Assembly: GCF_036917415.1 (NCBI RefSeq)
Contig: NZ_JBALDJ010000114.1
Coordinates: 227,209-291,208, forward strand
DNA length: 64,000 nt
Direction of reading: 5' to 3'
Origin: Nostoc sp.
Lineage (GTDB): Bacteria > Cyanobacteriota > Cyanobacteriia > Cyanobacteriales > Nostocaceae
The notes under the pieces were generated by a model, which worked only from the letters and a program-made list of their open reading frames with translations, was not told where the DNA came from and ran no database searches. This document shows, one piece after another, positions 39,262 to 57,918 of the stretch; the stretch's first letter is position 1; each line of letters starts with the position of its first letter. The position numbers and the translations under genes are program-made.

Positions 39262-41616
<2,355 letters not shown>

Positions 41617-43464: not shown

Positions 43465-44517
43465 TTAATTGAAACCGATAACTCCCGGAATTTCAAGAAC
43501 AAAATCTGCCCCATATACGGATGCAGGAGTCTGAAATCCGACCTTAACTTCGCCTTTAATTACCCGTTTGATAACTGCTATAGCCGCTAATGCCGTAAAA
43601 TCGTATGCTTCCGGCCCTAAGAGCTTTGCACTTACTTGTTGACCAGTTTCATCCTCAGCAATACCAATTACTCTAACTTGCCCCTTGGCTCGTTCTGCTG
43701 CCGTTGGCCCAGTCGGAAGAGTTTTAATTAGACTTGCTAAAGCACTTTGGAATAAAGACGAGTTAAATAACCATCCCAAATACTGGCTTGACTCCATCAG
43801 GAAGCGCACAGGATTAGGAAATACGGTATAAACCTCAATATTGGGGATACCCGTAGTTTGGAACGCAGTGATAATATCAGCACGCCAAGGGTTTGTTACT
43901 GCTGTCACCGGGCCATAACCAAAATCAATTTTACGCCTTTTTGATGCTGGACGAGATGAGATCAGCTTACCTGCTTCTCGGACTACCCCGATATGATGTA
44001 AAGTTGGCAGTACTGTATTTGCAGTTCCTTGAGATACACCTCCCACTGTTTCATAGATTAAAATAAGTCGTGTTGCAATCGCTAACTTCTGTTTGAGGTA
44101 AGCAGCTACACAATCAGTAGGGACGACCCCAAATCCCACACCAGGGAGAAGCATTATCCCTGCACTTTTAGCTTCAGTATCTCGTGCTAGTAGCGCCTGA
44201 AATTCAGGTACTTCGCCAGCTATGTCTAAATAGTGAGTTTTAGTTTGGAGGCAGGCATCGACAAGTGGCTTTGAGGTTTTGGAGAAAGGCCCAGAGCAGT
44301 TGATGACAGCAATTATATCCTCAAGAGAACGAGCGATCGCTTGCGGATCGTCTAGGCCAAAAACCCGAAAGTCCAAACTTAATTCATCGGCCACTGCTGC
44401 TAGTGAACTTTGATTGCGTCCAGCTAAAATTAATTCCAGTCCGTTATTTTTAGCAGATTCAGCAATGAGTTTTCCAGCATAGCCAGTTGCACCATACAAT
44501 AACACCCTTGATGTCAT
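43465..44517 (-). CDS. Saccharopine-dehydrogenase-like NAD(P)-dependent oxidoreductase
   Basis: YGATGYAG, LAGRN, NCSGPF, HYLDIAGE, GVGFGVVPTD, GFQTPA. Confidence 0.88.
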   Translation of the reverse strand: MTSRVLLYGATGYAGKLIAESAKNNGLELILAGRNQSSLAAVADELSLDFRVFGLDDPQAIARSLEDIIAVINCSGPFSKTSKPLVDACLQTKTHYLDIAGEVPEFQALLARDTEAKSAGIMLLPGVGFGVVPTDCVAAYLKQKLAIATRLILIYETVGGVSQGTANTVLPTLHHIGVVREAGKLISSRPASKRRKIDFGYGPVTAVTNPWRADIITAFQTTGIPNIEVYTVFPNPVRFLMESSQYLGWLFNSSLFQSALASLIKTLPTGPTAAERAKGQVRVIGIAEDETGQQVSAKLLGPEAYDFTALAAIAVIKRVIKGEVKVGFQTPASVYGADFVLEIPGVIGFN

Positions 44518-44529
44518 TATTATCACCAG

Positions 44530-44838
44530 CTAGGAGTTGTTTGCAATCTGCTGCCATAACCTGACTTCAGGTGGTTCAACTAAAAATTGTCCTGACTTTT
44601 CGCTCAAAGCTTTAATATACGGCTGCTCTAAGTGTTGAGCCAAAATTTCTTGGCTGACCCAGTTTTCATGCAACAGAAACAAAGATGGCTCTTCAACAGA
44701 TTGATGTAAATCGTAATTAATACAACCTTCTTCTGCAAGTGTAAGAGCTATTACAGATTGAAATTCCTGTTTGAATCCCTCCTCCAAACCCGGCTTTACT
44801 TTTAATCGAGCGGTGACTGTTACTTGCTGATTTGACAT
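44530..44838 (-). CDS. ABM-fold (putative quinol monooxygenase) protein
   Basis: EEGCINYDLHQ...FLLHENW..Q..LAQHL. ATG after AGAGGA. Confidence 0.88.
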   Translation of the reverse strand: MSNQQVTVTARLKVKPGLEEGFKQEFQSVIALTLAEEGCINYDLHQSVEEPSLFLLHENWVSQEILAQHLEQPYIKALSEKSGQFLVEPPEVRLWQQIANNS

Positions 44839-45003
44839 TGTTATTCCTCTTTTTTCTGAGATTAGTTCAACGGGCAGCGCCCAGGATTCAGGATTCCTCA
44901 ATTTCAGCACAGCAAGTTGGGGAATCTTGGAGGCTGCGGGACTGGGTACTGAAAAAGAATTTTTTTTAAGATTTGCTTGGAATCTGAATTCCCAGTCCCC
45001 AGT

Positions 45004-46644
45004 TCAAGTATTGATGCTGTTAATAATTTGCGAAGGCTTAAAGTAGTTGTAAGGTATGGGACGAGTTTGATTTCTAATATCTATTTGCCGTTCTATTTCA
45101 TGCAAATTCTGTTGGAATTGCACCACAATTTCCTGCGCCAATGGATCGGCAAACTCCTCATCATAAAAACCCAATTTGTCATAGTGGTACGATGTTAAAA
45201 TCTCAGTCCACATCACCTGATCGGCAGCTTGTTTAAAGGGAGGAAGTATCTTCATGATAGTTTCCAAATCCACACCCTTAGTTTCTGGAATTGGGTGGTA
45301 GGCTGCATAGGGCATATTGGGTACAAAAGCCATATATTCGTACTGAGAAAAATTCAAAGCAGAGTGTAGAGGAGCGCAAGTGAATACTACCACACTGATG
45401 ATTTCAATCAGTTGTTCTAAAGTCTCAATTTTGTCTGGCATTCCCTTGACTTTACCACCATCTTGGGCCACTAATTCTCTAGCCCAATTTTGCAACTCAT
45501 AGTCATTAATTAGCTCCTGTGAGGTTTTGTAATAGAGTTGTAAATATTCAGACACAAACTTTTCGACGGCATTCCAGATTAATATGCCATCGTCCCGGAA
45601 AGGGAAGTGCGGTAAAATTTCTGGGTCATCCGTTCGACGACTTTTTATTAACCGAGGGAAAGTAAACTTTTCAACACTCCATTCTTCATAAACCTTCGCC
45701 ACAAACCCAAGAGACTCCGCCAATGAACCTGCCATAAACTCATCAACCGGGCCTCCCGGCTGTAAAAACTGAGTGCGCCCCAAATCGTTATCAAATAACA
45801 TAAAACGGAAGTGGGGTTTTAAGAGTAAGGCGATGGGATGATTTTCTGCTAGTTGCCGCGCAGTTACAATTGCAAACGGAGCCATAACTGCATGGGTATA
45901 GGCAAAATGACTACCCAATTCTTGATGGTTGCCATCAGCAATTTGAACGCAGGTTTTTGCCAAAAACCAATCTAAATGGGGGTCAGCGGGTGTATAAATT
46001 ACACTTTTTGCGCCAGAGTCATGATTAATCTGGATGGCAACAGGCACTAGAGAACCACCATTAGAACTATCATTACTTTGCCAATAAAATAGAGCTTGTG
46101 GCTTGGGAAGGTACTTTTTAACATTATCGTAGACACCACCTTGAATATCAGATAACAAAGGGTAATCTAAGAAATACAGCTTGCCTTCCTTGAGTGCCTT
46201 TTCCAAAGTAAATTCTGTCCCTGCAACCTTCTGAAAATGGAAATCCGTGACAGCAAAATTATCAGGTAATACATCAATTCTTCGGATAGCTAGTGGGTTC
46301 GCTCCAGAGAGTCGTTGTTCTGCAAAACAAGAGTCTGTTTTGTAATTTTTTATGACATCAGGTTTTGGTAGTAGTGATAAGAGTTCTTCATATTCTTCTA
46401 ATTCATCTAATGGGTCTAAGAAGTTTCTGGCTTTAGCAGCTAGCATATTTGGTGCAAGAGTTGCCATACTTGCCAAACGTTTAGCAGTATATTCCGCCGA
46501 GAATATTTCCTTATGAGGAACTTTATCAATAACTGGTAGAGGAGCTAGATAATTGTAATTAAATTTGTACTCTTCTCGATTTTTATCTAGCCAATTGATT
46601 CGGACATCAACATCAGGATCTTTTTGTGGTAAGTATGGTTTCAC
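45004..46644 (-). CDS. lox: Lipoxygenase (cyanobacterial type)
   Basis: FAEQRLSGANP, WFLAK, QELGSHFAYTH (two His ligands), HSALNFSQ (His/Asn ligands), FPFRDDG, PNMP. GTG start after GGAG. Confidence 0.93.
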   Translation of the reverse strand: MKPYLPQKDPDVDVRINWLDKNREEYKFNYNYLAPLPVIDKVPHKEIFSAEYTAKRLASMATLAPNMLAAKARNFLDPLDELEEYEELLSLLPKPDVIKNYKTDSCFAEQRLSGANPLAIRRIDVLPDNFAVTDFHFQKVAGTEFTLEKALKEGKLYFLDYPLLSDIQGGVYDNVKKYLPKPQALFYWQSNDSSNGGSLVPVAIQINHDSGAKSVIYTPADPHLDWFLAKTCVQIADGNHQELGSHFAYTHAVMAPFAIVTARQLAENHPIALLLKPHFRFMLFDNDLGRTQFLQPGGPVDEFMAGSLAESLGFVAKVYEEWSVEKFTFPRLIKSRRTDDPEILPHFPFRDDGILIWNAVEKFVSEYLQLYYKTSQELINDYELQNWARELVAQDGGKVKGMPDKIETLEQLIEIISVVVFTCAPLHSALNFSQYEYMAFVPNMPYAAYHPIPETKGVDLETIMKILPPFKQAADQVMWTEILTSYHYDKLGFYDEEFADPLAQEIVVQFQQNLHEIERQIDIRNQTRPIPYNYFKPSQIINSINT

Positions 46645-46736
46645 GATTATCTCCAATTCGGTTTTTGAGCGTTTGGTAGTTAATGATTAACGTCAGAAAG
46701 GTGCTGAATCACATCAGGATGTAGCAACCACTTGAA

Positions 46737-48227
46737 TTACAGAGTTTTCAGATACTCAATCAAAGCTTTTTTATTCTCATCAGATAAATCAGTGCCATAA
46801 ATATGTCCCTGATTTGAATTAGCAGTTACCGTCGTATCGTATTTAAAACCTATAGCTTTGGCTTCATCTCCCTCAGTAATGAAACCAACTTTTTTCGGGT
46901 CGTAGACATCATATCCCCGATAGAAAACTTGAGGACGATTCTCTGGTTTTTCTAACAAATTTTGTAGAGATGGGACTGAACCATTATGTAAATATGGCGC
47001 TCTTAACCATAATCCATCTAGGGAAACAGATACATACCCATTGGTTTTACGTAAGTTTTTAAAGTCCCAAGGGTAGCCATCACCAAAATGATTGTAAGTA
47101 TCTGCTCCTTCTTGCGTCCACATATCTAACCGATGGCGGTCAGTTCCCACTTCTTCCACAGGGATAACAGTACCCGTTCTTTCCCCACCAAAAGCGTGAC
47201 AAGATGCACAAGTATTAGCAAAAATTTGACTTCCTTTTGCAGCCACTTGCCGATCAACTGCAAATGGATACTTGGGAGGTGGTAGTTCTTGAATAAAATC
47301 TTCTACCCGTTGTAAATCGGCTACAGGAAGTGATTTTTTGGTAGCACCATCACCAATTGCTCCAGTTTGAACAGTTTCTGTTAGTGAAGTTTCTAACCCA
47401 TCCCAATGGAGTGCAAATCCTTTGTGCATCTTTTGATTCCAAAGAGGCATCATATCAGAGTTACCGATAGTGTTATCTTTGGGCAACTTCAAAGTATTGA
47501 ATTTAACCGGATTAAAAGGGTCAATTCGACCAGGGCCCCAATTAGGACGAGAATCTGTCCAACTATAGTCTTCTTTTTGTTGCAGCAGCGCTTTCTTAGT
47601 TTGAGGAATTAGCAGATAGCGATAAAGTAAATTTTCTAACCACGAAAGCTGATAGTTATATTTGATTTCATCAAGGATATAATCTGCTGTAAATCTGGCA
47701 TCACCAGCAGTTGCACTCAAAAATCGTAAATAGCCTTGTGAATCAAACTTATTAGCAGGAGCAGCGGCCACAATTGTGGGTTTATCTTTCTCTGTTTTTC
47801 TGTAGGTGGCAGTATGGCAAACAGCGCAAGTTATACCGACGCGAGGAAAGCCAATGGTTTTTTTCGTAAACCCAACTGGCATTTCTTTACCCTCTTCCCA
47901 TGTGATTCCCAAGGAAGTATAACCACCTGGCCCTGGTAATTTATCAGGGAATATTCGTGGTAGTACCAGCCAAATCCAATAGGGAACACCTTGCGCTTCT
48001 TCTGTGCCAATAGAACCATATTTAAAGTGTTCTTCAGGCGATTCATAATATGTAGGAACCTCTCGAAAAAGGTTGTACCATCCCACATATCCAACTACAC
48101 CAGCTAAAAGGATCGCAATTAAAACAATGGTTGTGATTACCCTACCTATTTGATTTTTGAGTATTGTCATGGCACTCTTTTGCTCCTTTGCAGAAGAATC
48201 TGTTTGTAGTGGAGGCAATATACCCAC
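46737..48227 (-). CDS. Membrane-anchored di-heme cytochrome c protein, RoxA/FadCCP-like (paralog B)
   Basis: N-terminal TM, CAVCH and CASCH heme motifs, RAPYLHNGSVP. Alternative start at 48170. Confidence 0.82.
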   Translation of the reverse strand: MGILPPLQTDSSAKEQKSAMTILKNQIGRVITTIVLIAILLAGVVGYVGWYNLFREVPTYYESPEEHFKYGSIGTEEAQGVPYWIWLVLPRIFPDKLPGPGGYTSLGITWEEGKEMPVGFTKKTIGFPRVGITCAVCHTATYRKTEKDKPTIVAAAPANKFDSQGYLRFLSATAGDARFTADYILDEIKYNYQLSWLENLLYRYLLIPQTKKALLQQKEDYSWTDSRPNWGPGRIDPFNPVKFNTLKLPKDNTIGNSDMMPLWNQKMHKGFALHWDGLETSLTETVQTGAIGDGATKKSLPVADLQRVEDFIQELPPPKYPFAVDRQVAAKGSQIFANTCASCHAFGGERTGTVIPVEEVGTDRHRLDMWTQEGADTYNHFGDGYPWDFKNLRKTNGYVSVSLDGLWLRAPYLHNGSVPSLQNLLEKPENRPQVFYRGYDVYDPKKVGFITEGDEAKAIGFKYDTTVTANSNQGHIYGTDLSDENKKALIEYLKTL

Positions 48228-48259
48228 ACTAGACTAGGTATAAAATTAGGAGAATTGCT

Positions 48260-48670
48260 TCACTGGAATTGCAGCGATCGCATTTTGCTACGCATTGCTA
48301 GTGTCAGAAGAATTACTTCCGCTAATCCAAAAAACAGGTCTACAAAGGCAATGGATAAAAATCCTTTATCTTGCCCAAAGAAAAACACTGCACAAATGAA
48401 AAATGTCGATCCAAAAGCTCTTGAAGGAAATATTGATATCCAGGCGGTTGCTTGATATCGGTACGGATCAAGTGCTCCAGGAACATAAAATGCACTAATA
48501 ATAAACAACAACATTCCCGCAGCGCGAACCCAGATAATTGGCACTGGTATATGCATTTGAAGGAACGTCAGCATTAGTTCTGGAAAGAAGCAAGAGGGAA
48601 TGACAAAAAGCATATTAACAATAATGCCAAGCCAAGTAACGCGACTAAACCATTTAGCGTAATTATTCAT
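48260..48670 (-). CDS. Small four-TM membrane protein
   Basis: 136 aa with four hydrophobic segments. Sits 12 and 32 bp from the two di-heme genes. Confidence 0.8.
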   Translation of the reverse strand: MNNYAKWFSRVTWLGIIVNMLFVIPSCFFPELMLTFLQMHIPVPIIWVRAAGMLLFIISAFYVPGALDPYRYQATAWISIFPSRAFGSTFFICAVFFFGQDKGFLSIAFVDLFFGLAEVILLTLAMRSKMRSLQFQ

Positions 48671-48682
48671 TTTTCTCTCCTT

Positions 48683-50149
48683 TTAAAGCTTTTTCATGTA
48701 CTCAACTAGTGCATCTTTATCTTCTGTGGGAAGTTCAACACCATACAAGTGACCACTGTTACTATTTCCAGGTTTTGTGGTATCGAACTTAAAGTATTGT
48801 TTACCGTCTTCTACACCGACATCAGATACAAAACCAACTTTTGCTCTGTCAATCACATCGTAGCCACGATAGAATTCTTTGGGTCTATTTTCTGGTGTTT
48901 CTAGTAAATCTCGTAAGGTCGGGACTGAGCCATTGTGCAGATAAGGGCCGCGTAACCAAACACCATCAAGGGGCATATTTGCATAGCCATTCGTTTTGCG
49001 GAAATTCTTAAAGCGCCACGGATAGCCTGTATACAGAGTATTTTGATTAGACATCGTTTTGTAGGTATATGAGTCGAGACGATGGGGGTCTGTACCAATT
49101 TCTTGAATTGGTACAACTTTGCCTGTATAAGCACTACCAAAAGCATGACAACTAGCACAATTACTTTCAAAAAGTTGTTCTCCCTTCACTGCGATAGTTT
49201 CGTTAACTTCGTAGGGATATTTTGGTGGTGGTAGTTCCCAAAGCCAATCGGCAACTCTCTGAATTCGAGGCAAATCAATCGTTGTGGGCGTGACTCCAGC
49301 GCCTAAAGCCGCACTCTTATTTCGTTCATTAACGGAAGTGTTATTACCATCCCAATGTAACTGCAATCCTTCACGGGGTTTTTGATTCCAAACTGAGGGA
49401 AAATCAGAAGTACCAATCAGTTCATCCTCACGCAATTTATCCATTGGGAAATGGAATTGAATTGCTTTATAAGGATTAAAAGTATCTACTCTTCCTGGTC
49501 CCCAATCTGGTTGTTTTTCAACGAAATCAAGTCGAGATGCCTGATTAATTAGTGCATCTCTAGTTTGAGGAATTGCAATGAAGCGATAAAGTAATTTTTC
49601 AACGGGATTAAGACCGCCACTAATTTTTTCAATTTCTGGCAACATCCGGTTAGCAGTAAAGCGCTCATCTACACCAACTGCTGATAAGAATTTGATATAT
49701 CCCTGCAAATTAACCACATTAGCAGGCATTGTTGTGATGACTTGATGTTCGCTATTAGGGGTATTTCGCAGCGTTCCTGTATGACATACAGCACAATTCA
49801 ACCCAACTCTATCGATAAAGACTCGCCGTTGCGAAAAACCTATAGGTAAATCTTTGTCAGGTTCTTTGATAAATCCCAGAGAAGTATAACCTTTTCCAGG
49901 TAATTTATCTGGGAATAATTCTGGTAAAACTTTCCAAATCCAGTAAGGGACACCATTGACTGGTTCGCTGCCGATTGAACCATATTTAAAGTGGTTTTCA
50001 ATATCAGCATAATCCACTGGAGAGTTAGACAAAACAGGCCAAAGGAAAAATACTGCTACTGCTACAATACCTACAATCACAACCCAAATCCGCTGGAAAA
50101 CTCCCTTGATTGAGGTTGAAAGTAGGGTAGGGTTTGTTTGTTCAGTCAT
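48683..50149 (-). CDS. Membrane-anchored di-heme cytochrome c protein, RoxA/FadCCP-like (paralog A)
   Basis: N-terminal TM, CAVCH and CASCH, RGPYLHNGSVP. Shares HFKYGSIG..GVPYWIW and WGPGR.D.FNP with paralog B. Confidence 0.82.
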   Translation of the reverse strand: MTEQTNPTLLSTSIKGVFQRIWVVIVGIVAVAVFFLWPVLSNSPVDYADIENHFKYGSIGSEPVNGVPYWIWKVLPELFPDKLPGKGYTSLGFIKEPDKDLPIGFSQRRVFIDRVGLNCAVCHTGTLRNTPNSEHQVITTMPANVVNLQGYIKFLSAVGVDERFTANRMLPEIEKISGGLNPVEKLLYRFIAIPQTRDALINQASRLDFVEKQPDWGPGRVDTFNPYKAIQFHFPMDKLREDELIGTSDFPSVWNQKPREGLQLHWDGNNTSVNERNKSAALGAGVTPTTIDLPRIQRVADWLWELPPPKYPYEVNETIAVKGEQLFESNCASCHAFGSAYTGKVVPIQEIGTDPHRLDSYTYKTMSNQNTLYTGYPWRFKNFRKTNGYANMPLDGVWLRGPYLHNGSVPTLRDLLETPENRPKEFYRGYDVIDRAKVGFVSDVGVEDGKQYFKFDTTKPGNSNSGHLYGVELPTEDKDALVEYMKKL

Positions 50150-50215
50150 GAAACACTCCCCATTTTGTCGAGATTATTTGTAAGCGAAATTGTCGATGTG
50201 ATCCGCATCGCTTTT

Positions 50216-51610
50216 TTATCTAGATAAATTTGCAAACTGAGTTTCATGAAAGACTGACATTACTTCTTCCATCATCTCTTCATAACTATTGAAGCGATCC
50301 TGTTCGTAACAGCCCAAGGGATTTTCAATTACATTCAGCAGACATTTATTGCAATAGGTACAGGGTTTATCTGCCAGGTCTTTACCTGCTTTAAAAGATT
50401 TAACTAGATCATTGTTAGCAATTAATGTACGAGCCATTGTGACGCCATCGCAATAATGTTCGTTAATTGCCTGACGAATATAAGAAGCTTGTTGTAAACC
50501 ACCTGTACATAATACGGGAATATTAACGTGCTTTTTAATTTCTCTGGAATCTAGTAAGTTCCTGCCTTGGTTCTCTATTAGTAGCTGTTTGATTTTAGGG
50601 TCTTTTACATCATCACCACTAAATGCTTGAGGAGGTAATTGCTTTTTCACACGATTCCATAAAAAATTGAACAGTGGATGCAAAAATGCTTTGCGAAATA
50701 AAATGTAGTTGCGTGTGGTTTCGACACCACTTGACAACATGGCATCATAAGTTTTAGTAATTACATCAAAATTAAAATCACCAATGGGATTGAGTGGGTG
50801 AGGAAATAAGCTACCAGTTGACACATGGACGGCATCAGCCCCAGCTTCTTCTGCCCATTGACAAACTTGGATGGAATCTTCTATGGTGTTACCTGGTTTT
50901 TCCCAAAAGGTGACGGCGTTGTTATAGTCAACGGCACTAATTTTGAATTGCAGGTGAAAGTCGTTGCCTACTTCTTTGCGGATTGCTCTAATTACATCTA
51001 GCAAAAACCGTGCTCGATTCTCTAATGAACCACCATATTCATCTTGACGGTCGTTAATTCCAGAACTGAGAAATTGGTTAAAAAGATATCCATTAGCACT
51101 GTGCAATTCCACTCCATCTAAACCTGCTTCACGGGCACGTCTAGCACCATCGGCAAAGTATTGGATTGTTTCTTTTATCTCTGTTAGTGTCATCGCTTGA
51201 CACAGAAAGCCGTGGAATGGCTCAGTTTGGCTGGTGGAACTTAACGCTTTTTTTCCTGAGTTCTCTATACCACCAATGTCCTGCTGTCGCCCAGAATGAC
51301 TTAGTTGCAAGATCAATTTACAGTCATATTCGTGGACTTTTTCTCCTACTTTTCGCCAAAAAGGAATGCGCTCATCGCAGTCTATTGTGGCGTAATTGGG
51401 CATAATTCGTCCCCGGATGGCGACTGGGACAAAGGAAGTAATAATAGCCCCCACACCACCACGAGCAAACTTTTCTTCCCAGTTGATTCGGGCTTGAGTA
51501 CCTGAACCATCATAGTTATCCCATCTTCCAGAAATACTTGAGCGAAATATCCGATTTTTTACTGTGAGATTACGGAATCTCAATGGTTCAAAGATAATAT
51601 CGTTTTCCAT
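50216..51610 (-). CDS. NADH:flavin oxidoreductase (Old Yellow Enzyme / dienoyl-CoA-reductase-like barrel)
   Basis: LTVKNRIFRS, ARGGVG, QLSHSGRQ, GLDGVELHSANGYLFNQFLS, C-terminal CTYCNKC. Confidence 0.9.
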   Translation of the reverse strand: MENDIIFEPLRFRNLTVKNRIFRSSISGRWDNYDGSGTQARINWEEKFARGGVGAIITSFVPVAIRGRIMPNYATIDCDERIPFWRKVGEKVHEYDCKLILQLSHSGRQQDIGGIENSGKKALSSTSQTEPFHGFLCQAMTLTEIKETIQYFADGARRAREAGLDGVELHSANGYLFNQFLSSGINDRQDEYGGSLENRARFLLDVIRAIRKEVGNDFHLQFKISAVDYNNAVTFWEKPGNTIEDSIQVCQWAEEAGADAVHVSTGSLFPHPLNPIGDFNFDVITKTYDAMLSSGVETTRNYILFRKAFLHPLFNFLWNRVKKQLPPQAFSGDDVKDPKIKQLLIENQGRNLLDSREIKKHVNIPVLCTGGLQQASYIRQAINEHYCDGVTMARTLIANNDLVKSFKAGKDLADKPCTYCNKCLLNVIENPLGCYEQDRFNSYEEMMEEVMSVFHETQFANLSR

Positions 51611-52038
51611 GTGTTCCTCTGTCTTTTATATTATTTCGGCAATAAAATTAGGCGTCAAAATTATTCGTAGCACTAACAGTCTCGCCAAAGAACTATTATT
51701 TCTAGTGTCTCTGGGAGGGCAGTTTTTTATGTCTACAAATCTACAGTGGCGATTTTCGGATGGGAGCGTTAAGTATTAAGTTTTTGTTACTTAAACTTAC
51801 CTACCAAGTTTCAGCATGGATATTTATCCTTATTGGTTTTTACAGTTATATAAAGACTTTTGCAGTTTGTAAAGCAATGGGATTTACAGAGCAATTCTTA
51901 AAAAAAGTGAAAATTTCCGTCTTTTATTTCTCTTAAAAGGTTAAGGCAACCTTAAAAGTAGCTGCTAACAATTTGTTACAAACCTAACCAAGTAGGTAGG
52001 AAATCGATACAACCATAGCAAATTGGTTATTGAACACC

Positions 52039-52054
52039 ATTGTAAATTTACAAT
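52039..52054. promoter_or_regulatory. Perfect 16-bp palindrome in the divergent promoter region (candidate operator)
   Basis: ATTGTAAATTTACAAT. Confidence 0.4.
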
Positions 52055-52278
52055 TTTTTAAATTTTTGATTTAGAAATGTATAAAAGTTTATTGATGACG
52101 TTTTGCAAATTTGTGTAGTAACTTCATATATAACGAACCTCAGTCAGGTACATTCTAAATCATCAAAATCTCCTAAGACTAAATCTGGAAAATGGGAAAT
52201 TAGTGATGAAGCATTAGTGTACCTCTGTAAAAGTGAGATGCAGTGGAAAAGGTTTAGGTGTTACAACCAGAGAGTTTT

Positions 52279-54288
52279 ATGAAAAAGACAAGTCTAATTT
52301 TTAAGGGCTGTCTGCTCGTCCTATTCGTGACTATGTTTATAGTCTGCGGCTTTTATGGAACGCCTACAGCTCTAGCCGATGAGTATAGTGAAACACCTGC
52401 GCCCATAAGTACTGAGTATTCGGATACGGGTGTATCTGAATACCCTGATAACTGTGAAGGTATCGGTTATCTCCCAGATTATACAAAGGAGAATTTGACA
52501 GATGCCGAAAAGCGGGGTCGTTGTACTTGGTACTTATGGACTGGCGGTAACGCCAAGTACTATCGCGATTTAGCGAAGCGAACGCATGGTGGTGTTGACC
52601 TGCTAAAGCTGATTGACTCGCGTGTGCATGACGAGCGATTGCAACGTTATGGCGCAATTAACGATCCTGGATGTGAAAAAGCAACAGCGCCAGATGAATA
52701 CGGTTTGTGGCTAGATAAGTGTAAAGACCGACTCTCAACTGGCGTTATTGGGTTGCGTAAGTTCCAAAACCCCAACTTCGACTCGGCAAAATGGAACCCT
52801 GTTGAATATGCCAAAACCTCACAAATTGAGCCTCCCTACGTAATCGGGCAGTCTTGTGCTATTTGTCACGTAGCATTAGATCCCCTCAATCCACCCAAAG
52901 ATAAGGAACACCCGAAATGGCAAAACCTTGTAGCAGCATTAGGTAATCAGTACATCAAGGAAAACAAATTATTTGCATCCAGCGTCGGGGAAAATAGTTT
53001 TGTTAAGCAAGTACTTGACTCTCAAAAACCGGGAACTTCTGATACTTCTCGGATTGCGACCGATCACATCAACAATCCGAATGCGATTAATTCCATTTTT
53101 AATTTAGGCGATCGCCCCAAATATCCAGAGGTGATGAACGATGGTTCAACCAAGGATGTCAATCATATTCTCAAGGATGGTGCAGACTCTACAGGAGTGC
53201 CAATTGCCTCATTACGCGTCTACGTCAACATTGGGATGTGCGGCGATTACTGGACAAGTCTCCATGAGCCTTTATTAGGCAGAACTCCCCAAAAACCTTT
53301 TGACATCGAAAAGGCACGTCAGGAGTGCGAAGGCTGGAGACAGACAGAAACACGTATGGCTGATGCCGAAGCATTCTTAAAAACCATTAAGCCGATGCAC
53401 CTGAAAGATGCACCGGCTGGTGAAAAGTTCTTGACTAAAGATGAAGAAGTTCTCAAACGTGGCAAGCTGGTTTTTGCCAGCACTTGTGCTAGTTGCCATT
53501 CCAGCAAAATGCCACCTGCTGCGATCGCTGCTGACTCCGAACAGGCTCAGAAATGGTACGAAGAGTCTGTACTCAGTAGTAATTTTCTCGACCACAACTT
53601 CTTGTCTGATGATCAGCGTTATCCGGTGACACTAATTGGTACCAATGCGGCGCGATCGCTAGGAACAAATGCCGCTAAGGGTCATATTTGGGATCAGTTC
53701 TCATCGAAGACTTACAAAGAACTGCCTTCACCAGGTACTTTGACGCTGTACAATCCCTTCGATAAGAAAAAACCCATCGAATTTAAGATACCTGACGGCG
53801 GTTTGGGATATTACCGTACACCTTCGCTAGTGAGCATTTGGGCAACAGCACCACTTCTGCACAACAACACGCTAGGACTTTACAACGAAGATCCTTCAGT
53901 CAAAGGACGTGTAGAAGCCTATACTGATGCTATGGAAAAGCTGCTGTGGCCTGAAAAGCGTGAGGGGATTATCAGCAGGACAGATCGAGATACCAAATTA
54001 GAGCTTCCCCCAGGAGATCCGAATCCGAGATTTAAACTTCCTGTTCCTAAAGGTACGCCTGTGAATTTGCTAGCAAGCATCAATATTAGAGAGGCGATAA
54101 CATCTCTCAATCTCAGCAGCCTTTTCCAAGACTTGAAACCAGGCGGTGGAATTAAGGGTAAGTTGGCACGTGTGCTTTTAAGAGCCAACAAATCTCCTGA
54201 TTTTGTGGAAGATGAGGGTCATTATTTTGGCTCAAATCTGCCAGATGAAGATAAGAAAGCGCTAATTGAGTTCGTGAAAACGTTCTAA
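52279..54288 (+). CDS. Exported di-heme cytochrome c protein, RoxA/FadCCP-like (paralog C, larger)
   Basis: Signal peptide ending ALA-D, CAICH and CASCH, YYRTPSLVSIWATAPLLHNN, GHYFG...DKKALIEFVKTF. Confidence 0.8.
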   Translation: MKKTSLIFKGCLLVLFVTMFIVCGFYGTPTALADEYSETPAPISTEYSDTGVSEYPDNCEGIGYLPDYTKENLTDAEKRGRCTWYLWTGGNAKYYRDLAKRTHGGVDLLKLIDSRVHDERLQRYGAINDPGCEKATAPDEYGLWLDKCKDRLSTGVIGLRKFQNPNFDSAKWNPVEYAKTSQIEPPYVIGQSCAICHVALDPLNPPKDKEHPKWQNLVAALGNQYIKENKLFASSVGENSFVKQVLDSQKPGTSDTSRIATDHINNPNAINSIFNLGDRPKYPEVMNDGSTKDVNHILKDGADSTGVPIASLRVYVNIGMCGDYWTSLHEPLLGRTPQKPFDIEKARQECEGWRQTETRMADAEAFLKTIKPMHLKDAPAGEKFLTKDEEVLKRGKLVFASTCASCHSSKMPPAAIAADSEQAQKWYEESVLSSNFLDHNFLSDDQRYPVTLIGTNAARSLGTNAAKGHIWDQFSSKTYKELPSPGTLTLYNPFDKKKPIEFKIPDGGLGYYRTPSLVSIWATAPLLHNNTLGLYNEDPSVKGRVEAYTDAMEKLLWPEKREGIISRTDRDTKLELPPGDPNPRFKLPVPKGTPVNLLASINIREAITSLNLSSLFQDLKPGGGIKGKLARVLLRANKSPDFVEDEGHYFGSNLPDEDKKALIEFVKTF

Positions 54289-54454
54289 GTACAGCTTTGT
54301 GTACAATCGTAGTGTTTTAAACGCTCCAGAGGCGCAGGGAATTCGCTACGAATTAATAAAATGTTGTACTAAGACAACTTGTCTGGATATTTTTCTCATT
54401 CCCAGATTTAACCTGGGAACGAGAAAAAATATTTATTAAATAGGAAGGATATAT

Positions 54455-55927
54455 ATGCAGTATTTACCAATCATCTTTGTTCGTGGATATGCAGGTACAC
54501 AAAAAGACGTTGAGCAAACAGTTGACGATCCCTTTTATGGATTCAATAGTGGTTCAACCCATATTCGAGTAGATGAGAAGGAAAATCCTCAGAAGTTTTT
54601 TTTCGAGAGTCCATTGCTGCGGCTAATGACCGATCATGGTTATCAACCGATTGTTGACAATCAGAATGTGAGCAATCAGATTAAAAGATTGTCCAATCAA
54701 CTTGATAAAACTATTTGGATCTATCGATTTTATGATATATCTACACCTAGTTTTGGCTCCTCAAGTGTAGTCCGACAGGAGATGGAGGAGATAGCTAAGG
54801 GTTTAAGAGACTTGATCCAAAATGTCAAGGAAACGACTGGTGCTGACAAAATTTATCTTGTAGCCCATTCGATGGGTGGTCTTGTTTGTCGCAGCTTGAT
54901 TCAAAAAATTTATCCAGAACAAGGCGATCAAGCTGCTGATAGCATTGACAAATTCTTTACCTACGCTACACCTCATGGTGGCATTTATTTTGAGGTTGGG
55001 AATGGCTTGCTCGAAAACCTTAGAGACACGTTCCAATTGAATAATTCTGATGACTTTGGCCCTCAACGGATGTACCAGTATTTAACACCTGATATCAAGC
55101 CCAAGGATGAATTACCCGATAACTTTCAGCTAGAAAAACTACAAAACATAGAGAATGCATTTCCACCAAACCGCGTTTTTTCTTTGATTGGCACTAATGC
55201 ACATGATTATGAAGAAGCTTTTGGTTTCTCACGCAAGACTGTGGGGGTGAAAAGTGATGGTTTAGTTCAGATTGATAAAGCTTATATCACGGGATCTCAT
55301 CGTGCTTATGTTCATCGCTCTCATGGTGGGCGTTATGGCATCTTGAACTCCGAAGAAGGTTATCAAAACCTGCAACGATTTTTGTTTGGTGATATCCAGG
55401 TGAAACTCTCTCTTAGCAATGTTGAGTTAAAAGACCTGGACAAGAATTTTTATCAACTGGAAACTAGGGTGGCTTTGCGTGGTCTTCCTATTCCTATATA
55501 TGAGCAAGCGATCGCTCATTATTGCCCAATTACACAAGAGTTAACCCGAACAGATAAACCTGTTCCTCTATTTACAGCTTTCTTAATCCCAAGAAACTCA
55601 GCCAATGACGATAATACCTGTAGATATGCTCTGCGTTTAGCACTGCATTCGTTCACAAAACAAGAGACGAATTGGTTACGCGACCATCATCTCGACCAAG
55701 TACCCGTGTGGTCTGACTATCTAATTACTGATATTGCCGAATCAAATAGCACTTATGAGGCTAAATACAGTTGGAATTCTGATGAAAAAGAGCCAGTAAC
55801 AAAGTTAAATCCGACTTCAGAATCCAGTTCGGGTGTATATGTTGCGTATGTTTACTTACCTGAACGCGGGCAAAAAGTTTTAGGAACAAATGCGGCAGTT
55901 CGTTTAGAAATTTCCCAATGGCAATAA
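54455..55927 (+). CDS. Alpha/beta-hydrolase (lipase/PGAP1-like) with an extra C-terminal domain
   Basis: IIFVRGY oxyanion strand, LVAHSMGGLVCR nucleophile elbow, ATPHGG, KSDGLV. Confidence 0.8.
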   Translation: MQYLPIIFVRGYAGTQKDVEQTVDDPFYGFNSGSTHIRVDEKENPQKFFFESPLLRLMTDHGYQPIVDNQNVSNQIKRLSNQLDKTIWIYRFYDISTPSFGSSSVVRQEMEEIAKGLRDLIQNVKETTGADKIYLVAHSMGGLVCRSLIQKIYPEQGDQAADSIDKFFTYATPHGGIYFEVGNGLLENLRDTFQLNNSDDFGPQRMYQYLTPDIKPKDELPDNFQLEKLQNIENAFPPNRVFSLIGTNAHDYEEAFGFSRKTVGVKSDGLVQIDKAYITGSHRAYVHRSHGGRYGILNSEEGYQNLQRFLFGDIQVKLSLSNVELKDLDKNFYQLETRVALRGLPIPIYEQAIAHYCPITQELTRTDKPVPLFTAFLIPRNSANDDNTCRYALRLALHSFTKQETNWLRDHHLDQVPVWSDYLITDIAESNSTYEAKYSWNSDEKEPVTKLNPTSESSSGVYVAYVYLPERGQKVLGTNAAVRLEISQWQ

Positions 55928-56174
55928 ATAAGTGCTTCTTGTTGTGTAGTCAGTGATTAGTTTTGTTTACTTAGCACTTGTTAATTATTTTAGAGAGATA
56001 ATAATCAAGGTTAAAGAGCGTTAAGTTAATAATGACTAATAACTAATGATTCATAAAAGACATAAGAGAAAAAAATGGAGAGATGCAGTCTACGTCTCTA
56101 TAAAGGTTCTGGATTAACACATAGTTATTTTAACCAGATATCTATTTATTTCAAGCTGTTAACAGAGGAAAATT

Positions 56175-56966
56175 ATGCAGAGTAATCGCAAACAAACGGC
56201 TCTTATTACTGGTGCATCTGGCGGCATCGGTTATGAATTCGTGAAATTATTTGCTCAGGATGGTTACAATCTTGTATTGGTAGCTAGAAGTGTGGAAAAA
56301 TTAAATAAAATTGCCGATGAATTTAAAAATAAATTTGGCATTGATGTCAAAATTATTTCCAAAGATTTATCTAACCCATCAGCCCCAGAAGAAATTTTCA
56401 GGGAGCTAGAACAAGCATCGATCAATGTTGATGTGTTGGTGAACAATGCTGGGTTTGCTACCTACGGATTATTTAATGAAATTGACCTGAATGCTGAAAT
56501 GCAATTGCTACAAGTCAATATCTTATGTCTGACACATTTAACCAAGTTATTTCTTAAAGGTATGGTTAAGCGGGGGTCTGGAAAAATATTAAACTTGGCC
56601 TCCACTGCTGCTTTTCAACCAGGGCCACTGATGGCAGTATACTACGCTAGTAAAGCCTATGTTTTATCGTTCTCAGAAGCGATCGCTAATGAATTAGAAG
56701 GCACAGGCGTTTCTGTAACAGCACTTTGTCCAGGGCCTACAGAATCTGGTTTTCAACAAAGAGCTGCAATGGAAGACTCAAAGTTGGTAAGCGGTCAAAA
56801 AATTATGACTGCGGAAACAGTAGCCCAAATCGGCTATCGTGGTCTATTTGAAAACAAAACTGTTGTTGTTCCTGGAATTAAAAATAAGCTCCTTGCTGAA
56901 TCTGTAAGATTTACTCCTAGAAAGCTAGTGACTAAACTAGTCAGAAATATGCAGGAAAGCAAGTAA
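56175..56966 (+). CDS. Short-chain dehydrogenase/reductase (DltE/YqjQ-like)
   Basis: TGASGGIG, NNAG, YYASK, ALCPGPT. Confidence 0.92.
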   Translation: MQSNRKQTALITGASGGIGYEFVKLFAQDGYNLVLVARSVEKLNKIADEFKNKFGIDVKIISKDLSNPSAPEEIFRELEQASINVDVLVNNAGFATYGLFNEIDLNAEMQLLQVNILCLTHLTKLFLKGMVKRGSGKILNLASTAAFQPGPLMAVYYASKAYVLSFSEAIANELEGTGVSVTALCPGPTESGFQQRAAMEDSKLVSGQKIMTAETVAQIGYRGLFENKTVVVPGIKNKLLAESVRFTPRKLVTKLVRNMQESK

Positions 56967-57186: not shown

Positions 57187-57918
57187 CTAATCCCCCTGTG
57201 GATGCTCATCCCACAAGGTTGTCAGTTCCCGTAAACTTTGATGATTGCCATTGCCCAAAATCAGATGATCTAGTACTGGAATGGCCAAAAGCTGTGCCCC
57301 TGCTAATAACTGACGCGTTAATTCTATATCTTCCTGGCTCGGTTCAAGGTTCCCAGAAGGATGGTTGTGGGCAACTATTACCCGCGTTGCTCCTTGACGA
57401 ATAACTTCTCGAAAAATGTCACGGGGAGAGGCTAGGGTTTCGGTTGCAGTACCAATGGTAATTACTTGTGTACCCAATAAGCGATTCTTGACATCTAATA
57501 GCACCACTGCAAAACGTTCTTGTGTCTGCCACATCAAATCTTGACTGAGGGTAGCAGCAGCAGCAAGTGGGCTATCAATTAATGTGCCATCATTGGGACG
57601 AGATTGAAAAGCGCGTTTACCCAATTCGATGGCTGCTAAGATGCTTGTCGCCTTCGCCGGGCCAACACCAGAAATTTGCATCAACTCAGCAGGGCTAACT
57701 TCTCGCAGAACTACCAAAGGATCGCGTTGGTGTTTGGCTAATTCGCTCAAGATATATTGTCCCAAACCCACAGCAGATAGTTTTCCCGGCCCTTGACCAG
57801 TGCCTAGAAGAATTGCGATTAACTCTGCTGTGGCTAAAATTTTTGCACCATGCGTCATTAATCGCTCACGCGGACGCTCATTTGTAGGTAGGTCGGCAAT
57901 TCTGAGGCAATAGGTCAT
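57187..57918 (-). CDS. radC: RadC family JAB-domain protein
   Basis: [43 protein letters not shown]. Confidence 0.95.

Follow-up and report, generated by a model that had tools for sequence, protein, structure and literature searches.

A candidate lipid-oxidation gene cluster in Nostoc arranged around a conserved ene-reductase and paired di-haem proteins

The window analysed here, a stretch of 64,000 nucleotides of Nostoc DNA, contains a cluster of ten genes (Table 1) that probably encodes a bacterial pathway, so far undescribed, by which oxidised fatty acids are made or processed. The conserved unit within it is OYE(4Fe-4S)–dhA–TM protein–dhB, and not 'LOX plus partners' as the initial annotation had proposed. 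To the reading of the ten genes as a lipid-oxidation (oxylipin-type) cluster, assembled around that core, we give a probability of roughly 0.55. The observation from which the annotation started holds, and so does its claim of novelty, no published description of the cluster having been found in the literature; its interpretation as an oxylipin pathway is supported in part.

All ten open reading frames lie where they were first placed, and their Pfam and NCBIfam matches fit the domains assigned to them. The intergenic gaps, given earlier as 12–165 bp, come to 3–165 bp, varying with the choice of start codon. The CxxCH motif occurs exactly twice in each of the three di-haem proteins, whose N-termini carry a hydrophobic anchor or signal.

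Table 1. Features of the cluster, in positions of the window
Feature	Position	Strand	Remarks
Sacchrp_dh_NADP reductase (saccharopine-dehydrogenase-like, NAD(P)-binding)	43465..44526	-	353 aa; PF03435 E 3.9e-12; GxxGxxG N-terminus
ABM-fold (antibiotic biosynthesis monooxygenase-like) protein	44530..44910	-	PF03992 E 3.9e-18
Mini-lipoxygenase (LOX), without PLAT domain	45004..46656	-	546-550 aa; PF00305 E 3.8e-62
Di-haem B (dhB), membrane-anchored, RoxA-like	46737..48227	-	NF040606, PF21419; two CxxCH
Small multi-pass membrane protein (TM protein)	48260..48670	-	136 aa; family unassigned by Pfam/NCBIfam
Di-haem A (dhA), membrane-anchored, RoxA fold (predicted)	48683..50149	-	NF040606; two CxxCH
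OYE-family FMN ene-reductase, 4Fe-4S-type motif	50216..51610	-	464 aa; PF00724 E 2.5e-64
OYE/dhC divergent intergenic region, presumed home of both promoters	51611..52257	.	RNA contig ends
Di-haem C (dhC), exported	52258..54288	+	676 aa; two CxxCH; signal-like N-terminus
Lipase-like alpha/beta hydrolase	54455..55927	+	490 aa; GHSMGG nucleophile elbow
Classical short-chain dehydrogenase/reductase (SDR)	56175..56966	+	263 aa; PF00106 E 4e-48

When neighbourhoods are collected with dhA as the seed, the order OYE, di-haem protein, (TM protein), di-haem protein recurs in 74–79 of 80 loci. Bearers of this core belong to the Cyanobacteriota, Acidobacteriota, Verrucomicrobiota and Deferribacterota; among the sampled cyanobacterial genomes of the order they make up ~12% (49/401). 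LOX had been taken for the organising gene, but it is missing from the core in 44 of those 49 genomes and in every acidobacterial locus, and because most copies of the core are without it, the function of the core cannot depend specifically on LOX products. The complete, LOX-containing arrangement recurs in 32/32 loci seeded with LOX and in 37/80 seeded with dhA, and hence is not due to chance. In the tree, the dhA and dhB clades have parallel phylum topologies—the pair, therefore, is old and travels together—and the dhB clade is monophyletic, with members from both Acidobacteriota and Cyanobacteriota. In two genomes of the same genus, dhB has stop codons or is truncated.

The core opens with OYE, immediately upstream of dhA in 74 of the 80 loci. 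The best relatives of OYE in the PDB are YqjM-type OYEs and the 2,4-dienoyl-CoA reductase 1PS9; it has the catalytic motif HSANGYL, is without an FAD/NADPH domain, and carries a C-terminal four-Cys motif, Cx2Cx2Cx8-13C, that is present in 74/75 orthologues. One public protein (P0124) is an OYE fused to a di-haem enzyme. The TM protein, which matches no Pfam or NCBIfam family, has three to four hydrophobic segments and occurs in 52/80 loci; conserved His, Cys or Met residues were looked for in its family, and none was found. In Nostoc that lack the LOX, the protein carries an additional, fused domain of 290 aa, of unknown kind.

dhA and dhB are 49–52% identical, and both score above the NCBIfam NF040606 cut-off of 150 bits (187.9 and 185 bits, respectively; for dhB, also PF21419, E 1.7e-14). 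Their CxxCH motifs lie at residues 119 and 331 in dhA, and at 134 and 340 in dhB, which has an N-terminal hydrophobic helix and whose orthologues begin at the ATG at 48170. The haem domains of both are predicted to face the periplasm or the thylakoid lumen. The AlphaFold2 model of dhA (pLDDT 87.4) has one significant match in the PDB, RoxA (4B2N; E 1.5e-9, TM 0.56), which the family profile also matches (E 1.4e-19). RoxA is a secreted, soluble 70-kDa polyisoprene enzyme, whereas dhA and dhB are smaller, membrane-anchored, and set amid fatty-acid genes. In the alignment, H265, W266 and H467 correspond to F301, W302 and H641 of RoxA; thus the inter-haem tryptophan and the distal histidine ligand of the second haem are kept, but F301 is replaced by a histidine that is invariant across the family.

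Judged by model and profile, then, dhA and dhB are RoxA-fold di-haem proteins and far homologues of the Pseudomonas aeruginosa PA2077/PA2078 type, a relationship to which the initial annotation had appealed. PA2077 is a 10S-dioxygenase and PA2078 a 7,10-diol synthase, of the 'FadCcp' subfamily, and both hold glutamine at the F301 position (PMC4496055). The tandem Pseudomonas pair that we compared has CxxCH spacings of 245 and 235, in agreement with the published proteins (PMC4496055). The Pseudomonas pair shares with dhA and dhB a tandem arrangement of paralogues, membership of the RoxA branch of di-haem c proteins, a location outside the cytoplasm, a homologous C-terminal haem domain (46–50% identity over ~100 aa; the centre is weaker) and a polar residue aligned to F301. 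In the tree, however, the Pseudomonas proteins are a very remote outgroup; they have wider CxxCH spacing (235–245 residues versus 206–212) and greater mass (~65 kDa versus ~54 kDa), carry Gln rather than His, and come from an operon without OYE, TM protein or LOX. A third paralogue from Pseudomonas, which is anchored at its N-terminus, aligns to dhA and dhB over their full length (25% identity, E 1e-27).

The three di-haem proteins are not equivalent paralogues, however. dhC (CxxCH at residues 200 and 410) scores just 44 bits against NF040606, well under the cut-off; its HHalign match to the dhA/dhB family (98.9%) covers the C-terminal haem domain only, and its model (pLDDT 80.9) has MauG as best structural match (probability 0.94–0.99, E 4e-3). 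By these comparisons it is only a distant CCP/MauG-superfamily relative, and no close paralogue of the other two. It has more than 1900 homologues, all annotated as hypothetical, occurs in 54/80 loci, and is the divergent partner of the core in cyanobacteria. Together with the lipase and the SDR, dhC is an addition made in cyanobacteria. The hydrolase matches DUF676, PGAP1, Lipase_2 and LCAT (E 1e-5 to 7e-8), and is found in 39/80 loci, cyanobacterial only; the SDR, present in 48/80, matches mycolate reductase best in NCBIfam (E 2.5e-59, under the model cut-off).

The trio of LOX, ABM protein and reductase is likewise an add-on to the core, and one that most clusters lack; Nostoc without the LOX have an unknown protein and a GMC oxidoreductase in its place. 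The LOX belongs to a clade (≥67% identity) that is dedicated to the core and never found away from it. Every homologue at least 67% identical adjoins dhB, the top five matches among the 401 genomes are exactly the five next to dhB, the core is present at 32/32 LOX-seeded loci, and 9/9 genomes of the same genus having this type of LOX place it beside the core. Its best solved relative is CspLOX2 of Cyanothece (Rippkaea) PCC 8801, to which it aligns over its full length (PDB 5MED/5MEF/5MEG; E 3e-130 to 5MED/5MEF), and both are PLAT-less mini-LOXs of ~550–570 aa. They differ in that the Nostoc LOX forms a separate clade, always within the di-haem cluster, has HQELGSH where CspLOX2 has CHEAISH at the first His ligand region, and ends in threonine. 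HQELGSH, HSALN and the C-terminal ...INSINT are conserved; with its atypical H-x5-H spacing and C-terminal Thr, the enzyme's activity is putative. The reductase partners LOX in 34 of 37 LOX-bearing loci. For the ABM protein, the true start is likely the ATG at 44838, giving a product of ~102 aa (the orthologue cluster mean is 102 aa); RNA contigs of a relative do not include 44856–45002.

That the cluster deals with fatty acids, as first proposed, is supported by independent genomic links: alpha-dioxygenase homologues, patatins, lipases and LOX all occur at the core in one lineage or another. In loci L062, L063 and L065, the neighbour is an An_peroxidase protein similar to the fatty-acid alpha-dioxygenases of rice and Arabidopsis (E 1e-117), and for cyanobacterial alpha-DOXs, fatty-acid oxygenase activity is proven (PMC8720084). 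Patatin phospholipases lie near the core in Aliterella, Hydrococcus, Aetokthonos, Xenococcaceae and Pyrinomonadaceae, and lipase-like hydrolases and GMC oxidoreductases, too, are among the neighbours. The substrate is assigned through guilt by association. LOX, alpha-dioxygenase homologues and GMC oxidases—the swappable partners—are all peroxide generators; from this, the core may itself be a processing unit that consumes peroxide.

What the comparisons show is gene content, conservation, fold, homology and expression. A cytoplasmic FMN/4Fe-4S OYE, paired membrane-anchored di-haem c enzymes of RoxA fold and the small membrane protein make up the core. To this, cyanobacteria have added the divergent operon for dhC, the lipase-like hydrolase and the SDR, and the Nostoc lineage seen here a dedicated mini-LOX with its ABM protein and NAD(P) reductase. 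The substrates, products and order of steps that we infer are these. The hydrolase would release polyunsaturated fatty acids from membrane lipids, LOX would convert these to hydroperoxides, and the di-haem enzymes would consume or rearrange the hydroperoxide, much as PA2078 isomerises 10-hydroperoxy-oleate, possibly to diols, epoxy-alcohols, ketones or cleavage aldehydes. OYE would then saturate the alpha,beta-unsaturated carbonyls so formed, and the SDR and saccharopine-dehydrogenase-like reductase would reduce the carbonyl groups. No export signal is present in LOX, OYE, ABM protein, reductases or lipase, whereas the haem domains must lie across the membrane from them, so intermediates would need to cross, or flip in, the bilayer.

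Coupling of a fatty-acid dioxygenase to a haem enzyme that handles its hydroperoxide has precedents among cyanobacterial and coral LOX/DOX enzymes with catalase-related or haem-peroxidase partners, in the AOS-LOX fusion (PDB 3DY5) and in the 10S-DOX and catalase-related lyase of Nostoc. Here the partner differs, being an extracytoplasmic c-type di-haem protein of predicted RoxA fold together with an Fe-S OYE, and no catalase-related domain could be demonstrated. The parallel drawn earlier with plant jasmonate synthesis (lipase, 13-LOX, CYP74 AOS, AOC, OPR3) is apt for the order of enzyme types—hydrolase, LOX, haem enzyme, OYE—but is only an analogy, because CYP74 allene oxide synthase and allene oxide cyclase are both absent; the OYE, moreover, is of the Fe-S YqjM/FadH-like type and not an OPR.

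The cluster could instead repair or detoxify lipid peroxides, which we consider unlikely. On this account, the di-haem proteins would be peroxidases that reduce hydroperoxides of membrane lipids at the periplasmic or lumenal face; reactive enals and ketones would be quenched by OYE, SDR and the remaining reductases, and damaged acyl chains excised by lipases or patatins. The di-haem proteins do fall within the CCP/MauG/RoxA superfamily, the invariant distal-pocket His at the F301 position would fit peroxide heterolysis, OYEs and SDRs are classic reductases of reactive carbonyls, and the core has a broad distribution among both oxygenic phototrophs and aerobic soil bacteria. The canonical CCP family is not matched, however, and dhA resembles RoxA, not peroxidases. 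The core is also repeatedly linked to deliberate makers of fatty-acid hydroperoxides, the LOX clade and alpha-dioxygenase homologues, which a system for pure detoxification would hardly need.

The structural match of dhA to RoxA alone, with RoxA, RoxB and RoxC as the next-best NCBIfam models, suggests another reading, in which the di-haem enzymes are alkene cleavers acting on polyprenols, carotenoids or other unsaturated lipids rather than fatty acids, OYE and the reductases trim the carbonyl fragments, and the LOX/alpha-DOX links are secondary. Immediately downstream of the cluster in the window is what we take to be a geosmin/terpenoid operon, which would suit this. We find it distinctly improbable: those models score 50–75 bits against cut-offs of 900–1000, an invariant His stands in place of the hydrophobic pocket residue F301, dhA and dhB are anchored in the membrane and not secreted like RoxA, related loci do not share the terpenoid neighbour, and all recurrent neighbours of the core are related to fatty acids or glycerolipids. 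Least credible is that the di-haem cytochromes are mere carriers wiring the Fe-S flavoprotein to a periplasmic electron-transfer chain, with lipid genes as unrelated neighbours, for although OYE has an Fe-S motif but lacks an NAD(P)H domain, and an OYE–di-haem fusion is known, OYE and haem domains are on opposite sides of the membrane, no His, Cys or Met that could bind a cofactor is conserved in the sole membrane partner, the haem proteins are not small carriers, having ~480 aa and the enzyme-like fold of RoxA, and the links to lipid genes recur across phyla.

A consensus promoter scan of the divergent intergenic region gave nothing above chance. RNA contigs (Logan, which carry no strand information) from a relative 94–95% identical (run X1) cover 43470–52025 and 52154–56965 in two pieces, spanning every junction within the two runs of genes; they stop at 52025 and resume at 52154, inside that region. 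In runs X2 and X3 the contigs traverse it as well, and DNA carry-over in the RNA data is therefore possible. The genes are apparently co-expressed, in a cluster whose conservation the recurrent loci show. Pieces matching all of the genes occur, too, in a plant-associated metatranscriptome.

The window carries what is, at a probability of roughly 55%, a bacterial oxylipin gene cluster that employs haem enzymes of the RoxA/FadCcp type (RoxA being the rubber oxygenase, PDB 4B2N, and 'FadCcp' the Pseudomonas aeruginosa oleate-diol synthase pair, PA2077 and PA2078). All ten open reading frames that the initial annotation had gathered into this pathway recurred in our ORF and domain searches at the same coordinates, with domains that match their labels (table). 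The three di-haem cytochrome c proteins (dhA, dhB and dhC) each contain exactly two CxxCH motifs; dhA and dhB begin with a single hydrophobic helix and dhC with a signal-like sequence, neither of which a sequence scan found in the lipoxygenase (LOX), the OYE-family flavoprotein, the ABM protein, the two reductases or the hydrolase. Orthologues suggest that dhB starts at the ATG at 48170 and that LOX is 546 aa long, shorter than its called frame; orthologues and RNA from a relative suggest that the ABM protein starts at the ATG at 44838. The cluster proteins are 93–99% identical to their counterparts in N. punctiforme NIES-2108, Peltigera cyanobionts and Nostoc sp. LPT. The source organism is itself a Nostoc, with an assembly of 136 contigs and 7.36 Mb.

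Genes of the cluster, in window coordinates
Feature	Position	Run	Family evidence
Sacchrp_dh_NADP-type reductase	43465–44526	minus	
ABM protein	44530–44910	minus	
Lipoxygenase (LOX)	45004–46656	minus	PF00305, E 3.8e-62
dhB	46737–48227	minus	NF040606, 185 bits
Small multi-pass membrane (TM) protein	48260–48670	minus	no family matches
dhA	48683–50149	minus	NF040606, 187.9 bits
OYE-family flavoprotein	50216–51610	minus	PF00724, E 2.5e-64
dhC	52258–54288	plus (opposite strand)	NF040606, 44.2 bits
Lipase-like alpha/beta hydrolase	54455–55927	plus	GHSMGG elbow
Classical SDR	56175–56966	plus	

Three RNA runs (X1–X3) from a relative 94–95% identical to the window yield contigs over every gene junction. 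X1 gives two, one covering the whole minus run (43470–52025) and one the whole plus run (52154–56965), with a gap in the divergent intergenic region; contigs of X2 and X3 span that region as well, through DNA carry-over, possibly, or overlapping 5′ ends. Pieces from a plant-associated metatranscriptome fall on all cluster genes, most deeply on dhC. The RNA coverage is consistent with two operons; a promoter and terminator scan returned counts equal to the shuffled expectation. In the relative's contigs the 147 bp between LOX and ABM (44856–45002) are replaced by 11 other bases, a strain-level indel.

A search seeded with dhA, with one genome per species, was followed by mapping the ten proteins onto the 80 best loci and clustering all the ORFs there. 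The unit that recurs is OYE, di-haem, (TM protein), di-haem—the core. Di-haem genes are present in 79 of the 80 loci, nearly always paired (152 copies in all), with OYE directly upstream of the pair in 74 and the TM protein in 52. The core ranges through many cyanobacterial families and into the Acidobacteriota (Pyrinomonadaceae, Bryobacteraceae and Solibacteraceae), and occurs in one verrucomicrobial and one deferribacterial bin. Within the window's own order, dhA was found in 49 of 401 evenly sampled genomes; in a protein library of 1.84 billion representatives it matches 598 clusters (50% identity) at E ≤ 1e-30 and 3428 at E ≤ 1e-10. The genes of the divergent run are additions, seen mostly in cyanobacterial loci (dhC in 54 of the 80 loci, SDR in 48, the hydrolase in 39), and among these loci dhC and the hydrolase occur in cyanobacterial ones only. 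Some Nostocales, Aliterella, Aetokthonos and Waterburya have added LOX (37 loci), ABM (34) and the reductase (34). A maximum-likelihood tree recovers the dhB clade as monophyletic (100/97), and in the dhA and dhB groups alike the cyanobacterial sequences form one group with the acidobacterial ones beside it; this dates the duplication far back and shows the two genes travelling together. Two Nostoc genomes have a damaged dhB (G005:C3:4990303–4991130 and G021:C1:2360458–2361576), with two in-frame stop codons in one and a truncated frame of 382 aa in the other, and intact dhA, OYE and LOX in both. It may be that some strains can dispense with the second di-haem paralogue; assembly errors are the other possibility.

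The initial annotation had paired LOX with the di-haem proteins, and this holds in one direction only: across the 80 loci and 401 genomes, LOX of this clade always accompanies the core, but the core often does without LOX. In at least 11 Nostoc loci the trio LOX-ABM-reductase is missing while the flanks (RadC, SDR, hydrolase, dhC, OYE, dhA and dhB) are unchanged. Its place is mostly taken by a 426-aa protein, a fusion of the TM protein with a domain of about 290 aa, followed by a GMC oxidoreductase; three such loci have the small TM protein alone. Sister Nostoc genomes thus offer a natural experiment, with LOX-ABM-reductase in some and an unknown protein plus GMC oxidase in others, at the same position. 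Some kind of LOX exists in 118 of the 401 genomes. The five best matches to the window's LOX (100, 98, 69, 69 and 67% identity), and no others, have dhB within 2 kb; the next best reach at most 53% and come from genomes of this sample without dhA. Loci seeded with LOX instead (69–99% identity) contain the core in 32 cases out of 32. Among 24 genomes of the same genus, nine have a cluster-type LOX, every one beside the core; four have the core (a fragment in one) and no cluster-type LOX; and ten have other LOX types only, and no core. Since the cluster-type LOX is found only beside the core, we regard this LOX clade as a committed component of a system that does not depend on it.

Lipoxygenases coordinate iron through two histidines in a first helix (usually H-x4-H), a His-x3-Asn and a C-terminal carboxylate, usually of Ile. 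The closest solved relative of the window's LOX is the mini-LOX CspLOX2, which aligns over the full length (E 3e-130). The motif HSALN is present, but the first ligand helix (residues about 240–250), CHEAISH in CspLOX2, reads HQELGSH (H-x5-H), the histidine being offset by one residue, and the protein ends in Thr rather than Ile. Both peculiarities are kept in about 35 orthologues. We dropped as unproven an identification with the characterized NpLOX2 of Nostoc punctiforme: annotated orthologues are 546 aa long, versus 547-aa Nostoc mini-LOXs at 51–54% identity, and one same-genus genome (9.1 Mb, 6 contigs), which has LOX of other types but lacks the di-haem core, also counted against it. Two mini-LOXs in the protein library (P0333 and P0328; Nitrosococcus watsonii, a gammaproteobacterium, and Synechococcus sp. 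PCC 7336) are 61–64% identical to that of the window.

What adjoins the core in other lineages is the strongest evidence we have concerning its substrate. In three loci, from Dactylococcopsis (L062), Pyrinomonadaceae (L063) and Xenococcaceae (L065), the neighbour is a 585-aa An_peroxidase protein that matches the fatty-acid alpha-dioxygenases of rice and Arabidopsis (E 1e-112 to 1e-117), a group whose cyanobacterial members have been proven to be such enzymes (PMC8720084). Three architectures of patatin-like phospholipase are found beside the core, in Aliterella, Hydrococcus, Aetokthonos, Xenococcaceae and Pyrinomonadaceae, and many Nostocaceae have an additional GxSxG hydrolase-like gene that separates dhB from LOX. 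The OYE of Pyrinomonadaceae is preceded by an alpha/beta hydrolase and an acetoacetate-decarboxylase-like gene, and GMC oxidoreductases flank the core unit there. Fatty-acid dioxygenases of two unrelated families, and lipid hydrolases of several, have thus been recruited to one core, which argues that the core acts on a lipid. LOX, alpha-dioxygenase and GMC oxidase are all generators of peroxides, which points to a core that uses peroxides and draws on interchangeable suppliers. Repair or detoxification of lipid peroxides is the nearest rival to an oxylipin pathway; we think it unlikely.

The domain of about 290 aa occurs in two forms. Fused to the small TM protein it is found at L028:12943–14223, and in L024, L027, L029 and L031–L035, all of them LOX-less Nostoc loci; in free form it stands between the alpha-dioxygenase homologue and OYE (L062:5858–6784 and L065:5111–6031). 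The two are homologous, at 30% identity and E 1e-8, with an invariant IHAxG...R.S motif in common. Pfam and PDB sequence searches gave no match to either form, and the idea of a catalase-related hydroperoxide enzyme, which came from the motifs IHAxG and RLSV, found no support there.

By the curated whole-protein cut-off of NF040606, the 'di-heme cytochrome C peroxidase' subfamily (150 bits), dhA and dhB are members and dhC is not. Both members contain the Pfam RoxA-like cytochrome c motif. The AlphaFold2 model of dhA (61-sequence alignment, mean pLDDT 87.4) has RoxA as its sole significant PDB match (Foldseek, E 1.5e-9, TM 0.56), and the dhA family profile matches RoxA at E 1.4e-19; dhA is thus predicted to have the overall fold of RoxA, with two c-haems. 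When the two are aligned, W266 of dhA corresponds to the inter-haem tryptophan W302, and H467 to H641, the distal histidine of the second, bis-His haem; both are conserved, and both CxxCH motifs are invariant in the family alignment. The distal pocket of RoxA is hydrophobic, lined by F301 and F317, of which F317 is essential. At F301, in the pocket of the catalytic haem, the dhA family instead has an invariant His, and not a hydrophobic residue; PA2077 and PA2078 have Gln there (PMC4496055). Against the RoxA, RoxB and RoxC equivalog models of NCBIfam, with cut-offs of 900–1000 bits, dhA and dhB score 50–75 and dhC at most 19. Cleavage, in the manner of RoxA, of some alkene other than a fatty acid strikes us as improbable, more so than lipid-peroxide repair. 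An activity of dhA and dhB on fatty acids, whether dioxygenation of unsaturated ones or isomerization of their hydroperoxides, would agree with their genomic association with LOX, alpha-dioxygenase homologues, patatins and lipases.

The Pseudomonas enzymes were compared by way of tandem di-haem ORFs of P. paraeruginosa ATCC 9027, taken to be of PA2077/PA2078 type because the spacings between their CxxCH motifs, 245 and 235 residues, are the same as the published ones (PMC4496055). This pair is 46–50% identical to dhA and dhB in the final 100 residues (E 1e-20 to 1e-25) and only weakly similar in the centre; its motifs lie about 235–245 residues apart, against 206–212 in dhA and dhB. A third paralogue in the same genome (L187:3205–5154, G424:C12; 649 aa, with an N-terminal membrane anchor) aligns better, along the whole of dhA and dhB, at 25% identity and E 1e-27. 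We know of no described function for it. In the tree all three Pseudomonas proteins are a distant outgroup. The kinship with PA2077/PA2078 originally proposed is therefore real as homology, but the distance and the differing spacing place dhA and dhB outside the FadCcp grouping, in a separate branch of the RoxA/FadCcp group. Control genomes yielded no match to NF040606, but no LOX either; no LOX-bearing Pseudomonas was therefore among them, and they are silent on PA2077/PA2078.

The three di-haem proteins had been taken to be alike, which is true of dhA and dhB as members of NF040606; dhC shares with them the C-terminal haem domain only (HHalign 98.9%, E 2.4e-17). Its model (pLDDT 80.9) bears a weak resemblance to MauG, at the level of fold (probability 0.94–0.99, TM 0.23/0.40), and the Pfam CCP_MauG domain matched none of the three at E up to 0.01. 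More than 1900 homologues of dhC exist, every one annotated as hypothetical.

OYE is an Oxidored_FMN TIM barrel with the ene-reductase set His-x-x-Asn-Gly-Tyr (HSANGYL), similar to YqjM-type OYEs and to the FMN domain of 2,4-dienoyl-CoA reductase. A four-cysteine cluster motif, Cx2Cx2Cx8-13C, is present in 74 of 75 orthologues. By these motifs it belongs with the Fe–S flavoproteins of Old Yellow Enzyme/2,4-dienoyl-CoA reductase type, although the C-terminal FAD and NADPH domains of FadH are missing from its 464 aa. One library protein, P0124 (1025 aa), joins a complete OYE, 51% identical to that of the window and including the cysteine motif, to a complete RoxA-like di-haem enzyme. Its predicted layout fits a cytoplasmic OYE, a membrane helix and a haem domain outside, and the fusion argues for physical coupling of the two enzymes. 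Six other long members of the family (P0135, P0137, P0153, P0177, P0178 and P0235) have N-terminal extensions of 300–560 aa with no Pfam match. The family alignment of the TM protein contains no conserved His, Cys or Met, which makes an electron carrier unlikely, and we discarded the notion of an electron conduit; the protein may serve as a scaffold, or as a passage for lipids. That the whole assembly is simply a redox wire is the least credible of the alternatives.

We favour an oxylipin-type pathway, at slightly better than even odds, and it might run as follows. The hydrolase would free a fatty acid, and LOX would turn this into a hydroperoxide; the di-haem enzymes would consume or rearrange the hydroperoxide at the outer face of the membrane, much as PA2078 does with 10-hydroperoxy-oleate; OYE would reduce the enone or enal products, and the reductases complete the product. 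Two things sit awkwardly with this reading: the predicted cytoplasmic enzymes and haem domains would be on different sides of the membrane, and the LOX iron-ligand and C-terminal motifs are atypical. Nor does it reproduce plant jasmonate/octadecanoid synthesis, with its CYP74 allene oxide synthase and allene oxide cyclase: domain searches found neither a P450 nor an AOC-like domain in the cluster. More tentatively—we would sooner bet against it than for it—the cluster might be one version of a modular oxylipin system that spans several phyla. Its conserved, membrane-associated processing core would have an Fe–S ene-reductase on the cytoplasmic side, a pair of RoxA-fold di-haem enzymes on the outer side and, between the two, a small membrane protein; this core would take peroxides from interchangeable, lineage-specific generators (a dedicated LOX here, plant-type alpha-dioxygenases elsewhere, and GMC oxidases both in Acidobacteria and in those Nostoc that have no LOX) and yield a defined family of reduced oxylipins with roles in signalling or defence, Nostoc symbioses being one possible setting.

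Known bacterial cases of oxylipin synthesis are few and isolated: the Pseudomonas diol synthase and LoxA, the Myxococcus LOX, and the cyanobacterial LOX/catalase or DOX/lyase pairs. The combination had been called undescribed, and so it appears: full-text searches of a library with few subscription journals found no report of RoxA-like di-haem genes and an Fe–S OYE linked to a gene for LOX or alpha-dioxygenase. If the favoured reading is right, it brings in a large enzyme family without assigned function (some 600 clusters at 50% identity, E ≤ 1e-30) and ties di-haem chemistry of the RoxA fold to fatty-acid hydroperoxides; the enzymes could be new biocatalysts for regio-specific oxidation of fatty acids. 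The cluster is common in the cyanobionts of lichens and plants, and this, with its plant-associated expression, suggests that the products could matter in symbiosis or in defence against grazing.

The surroundings are less constant. Directly past the end of the reductase lies a 783-aa ORF (39262–41613) that related loci do not keep; a cation/proton-antiporter-like gene takes its place in them. With flanking genes that vary in this way, we rejected a functional link to the operon on that side. On the other side, a RadC/JAB-like gene (57187–57918, 243 aa) adjoins the end of SDR. It is kept in 27 Nostoc loci and absent from other genera, and for that reason is probably not part of the cluster proper.
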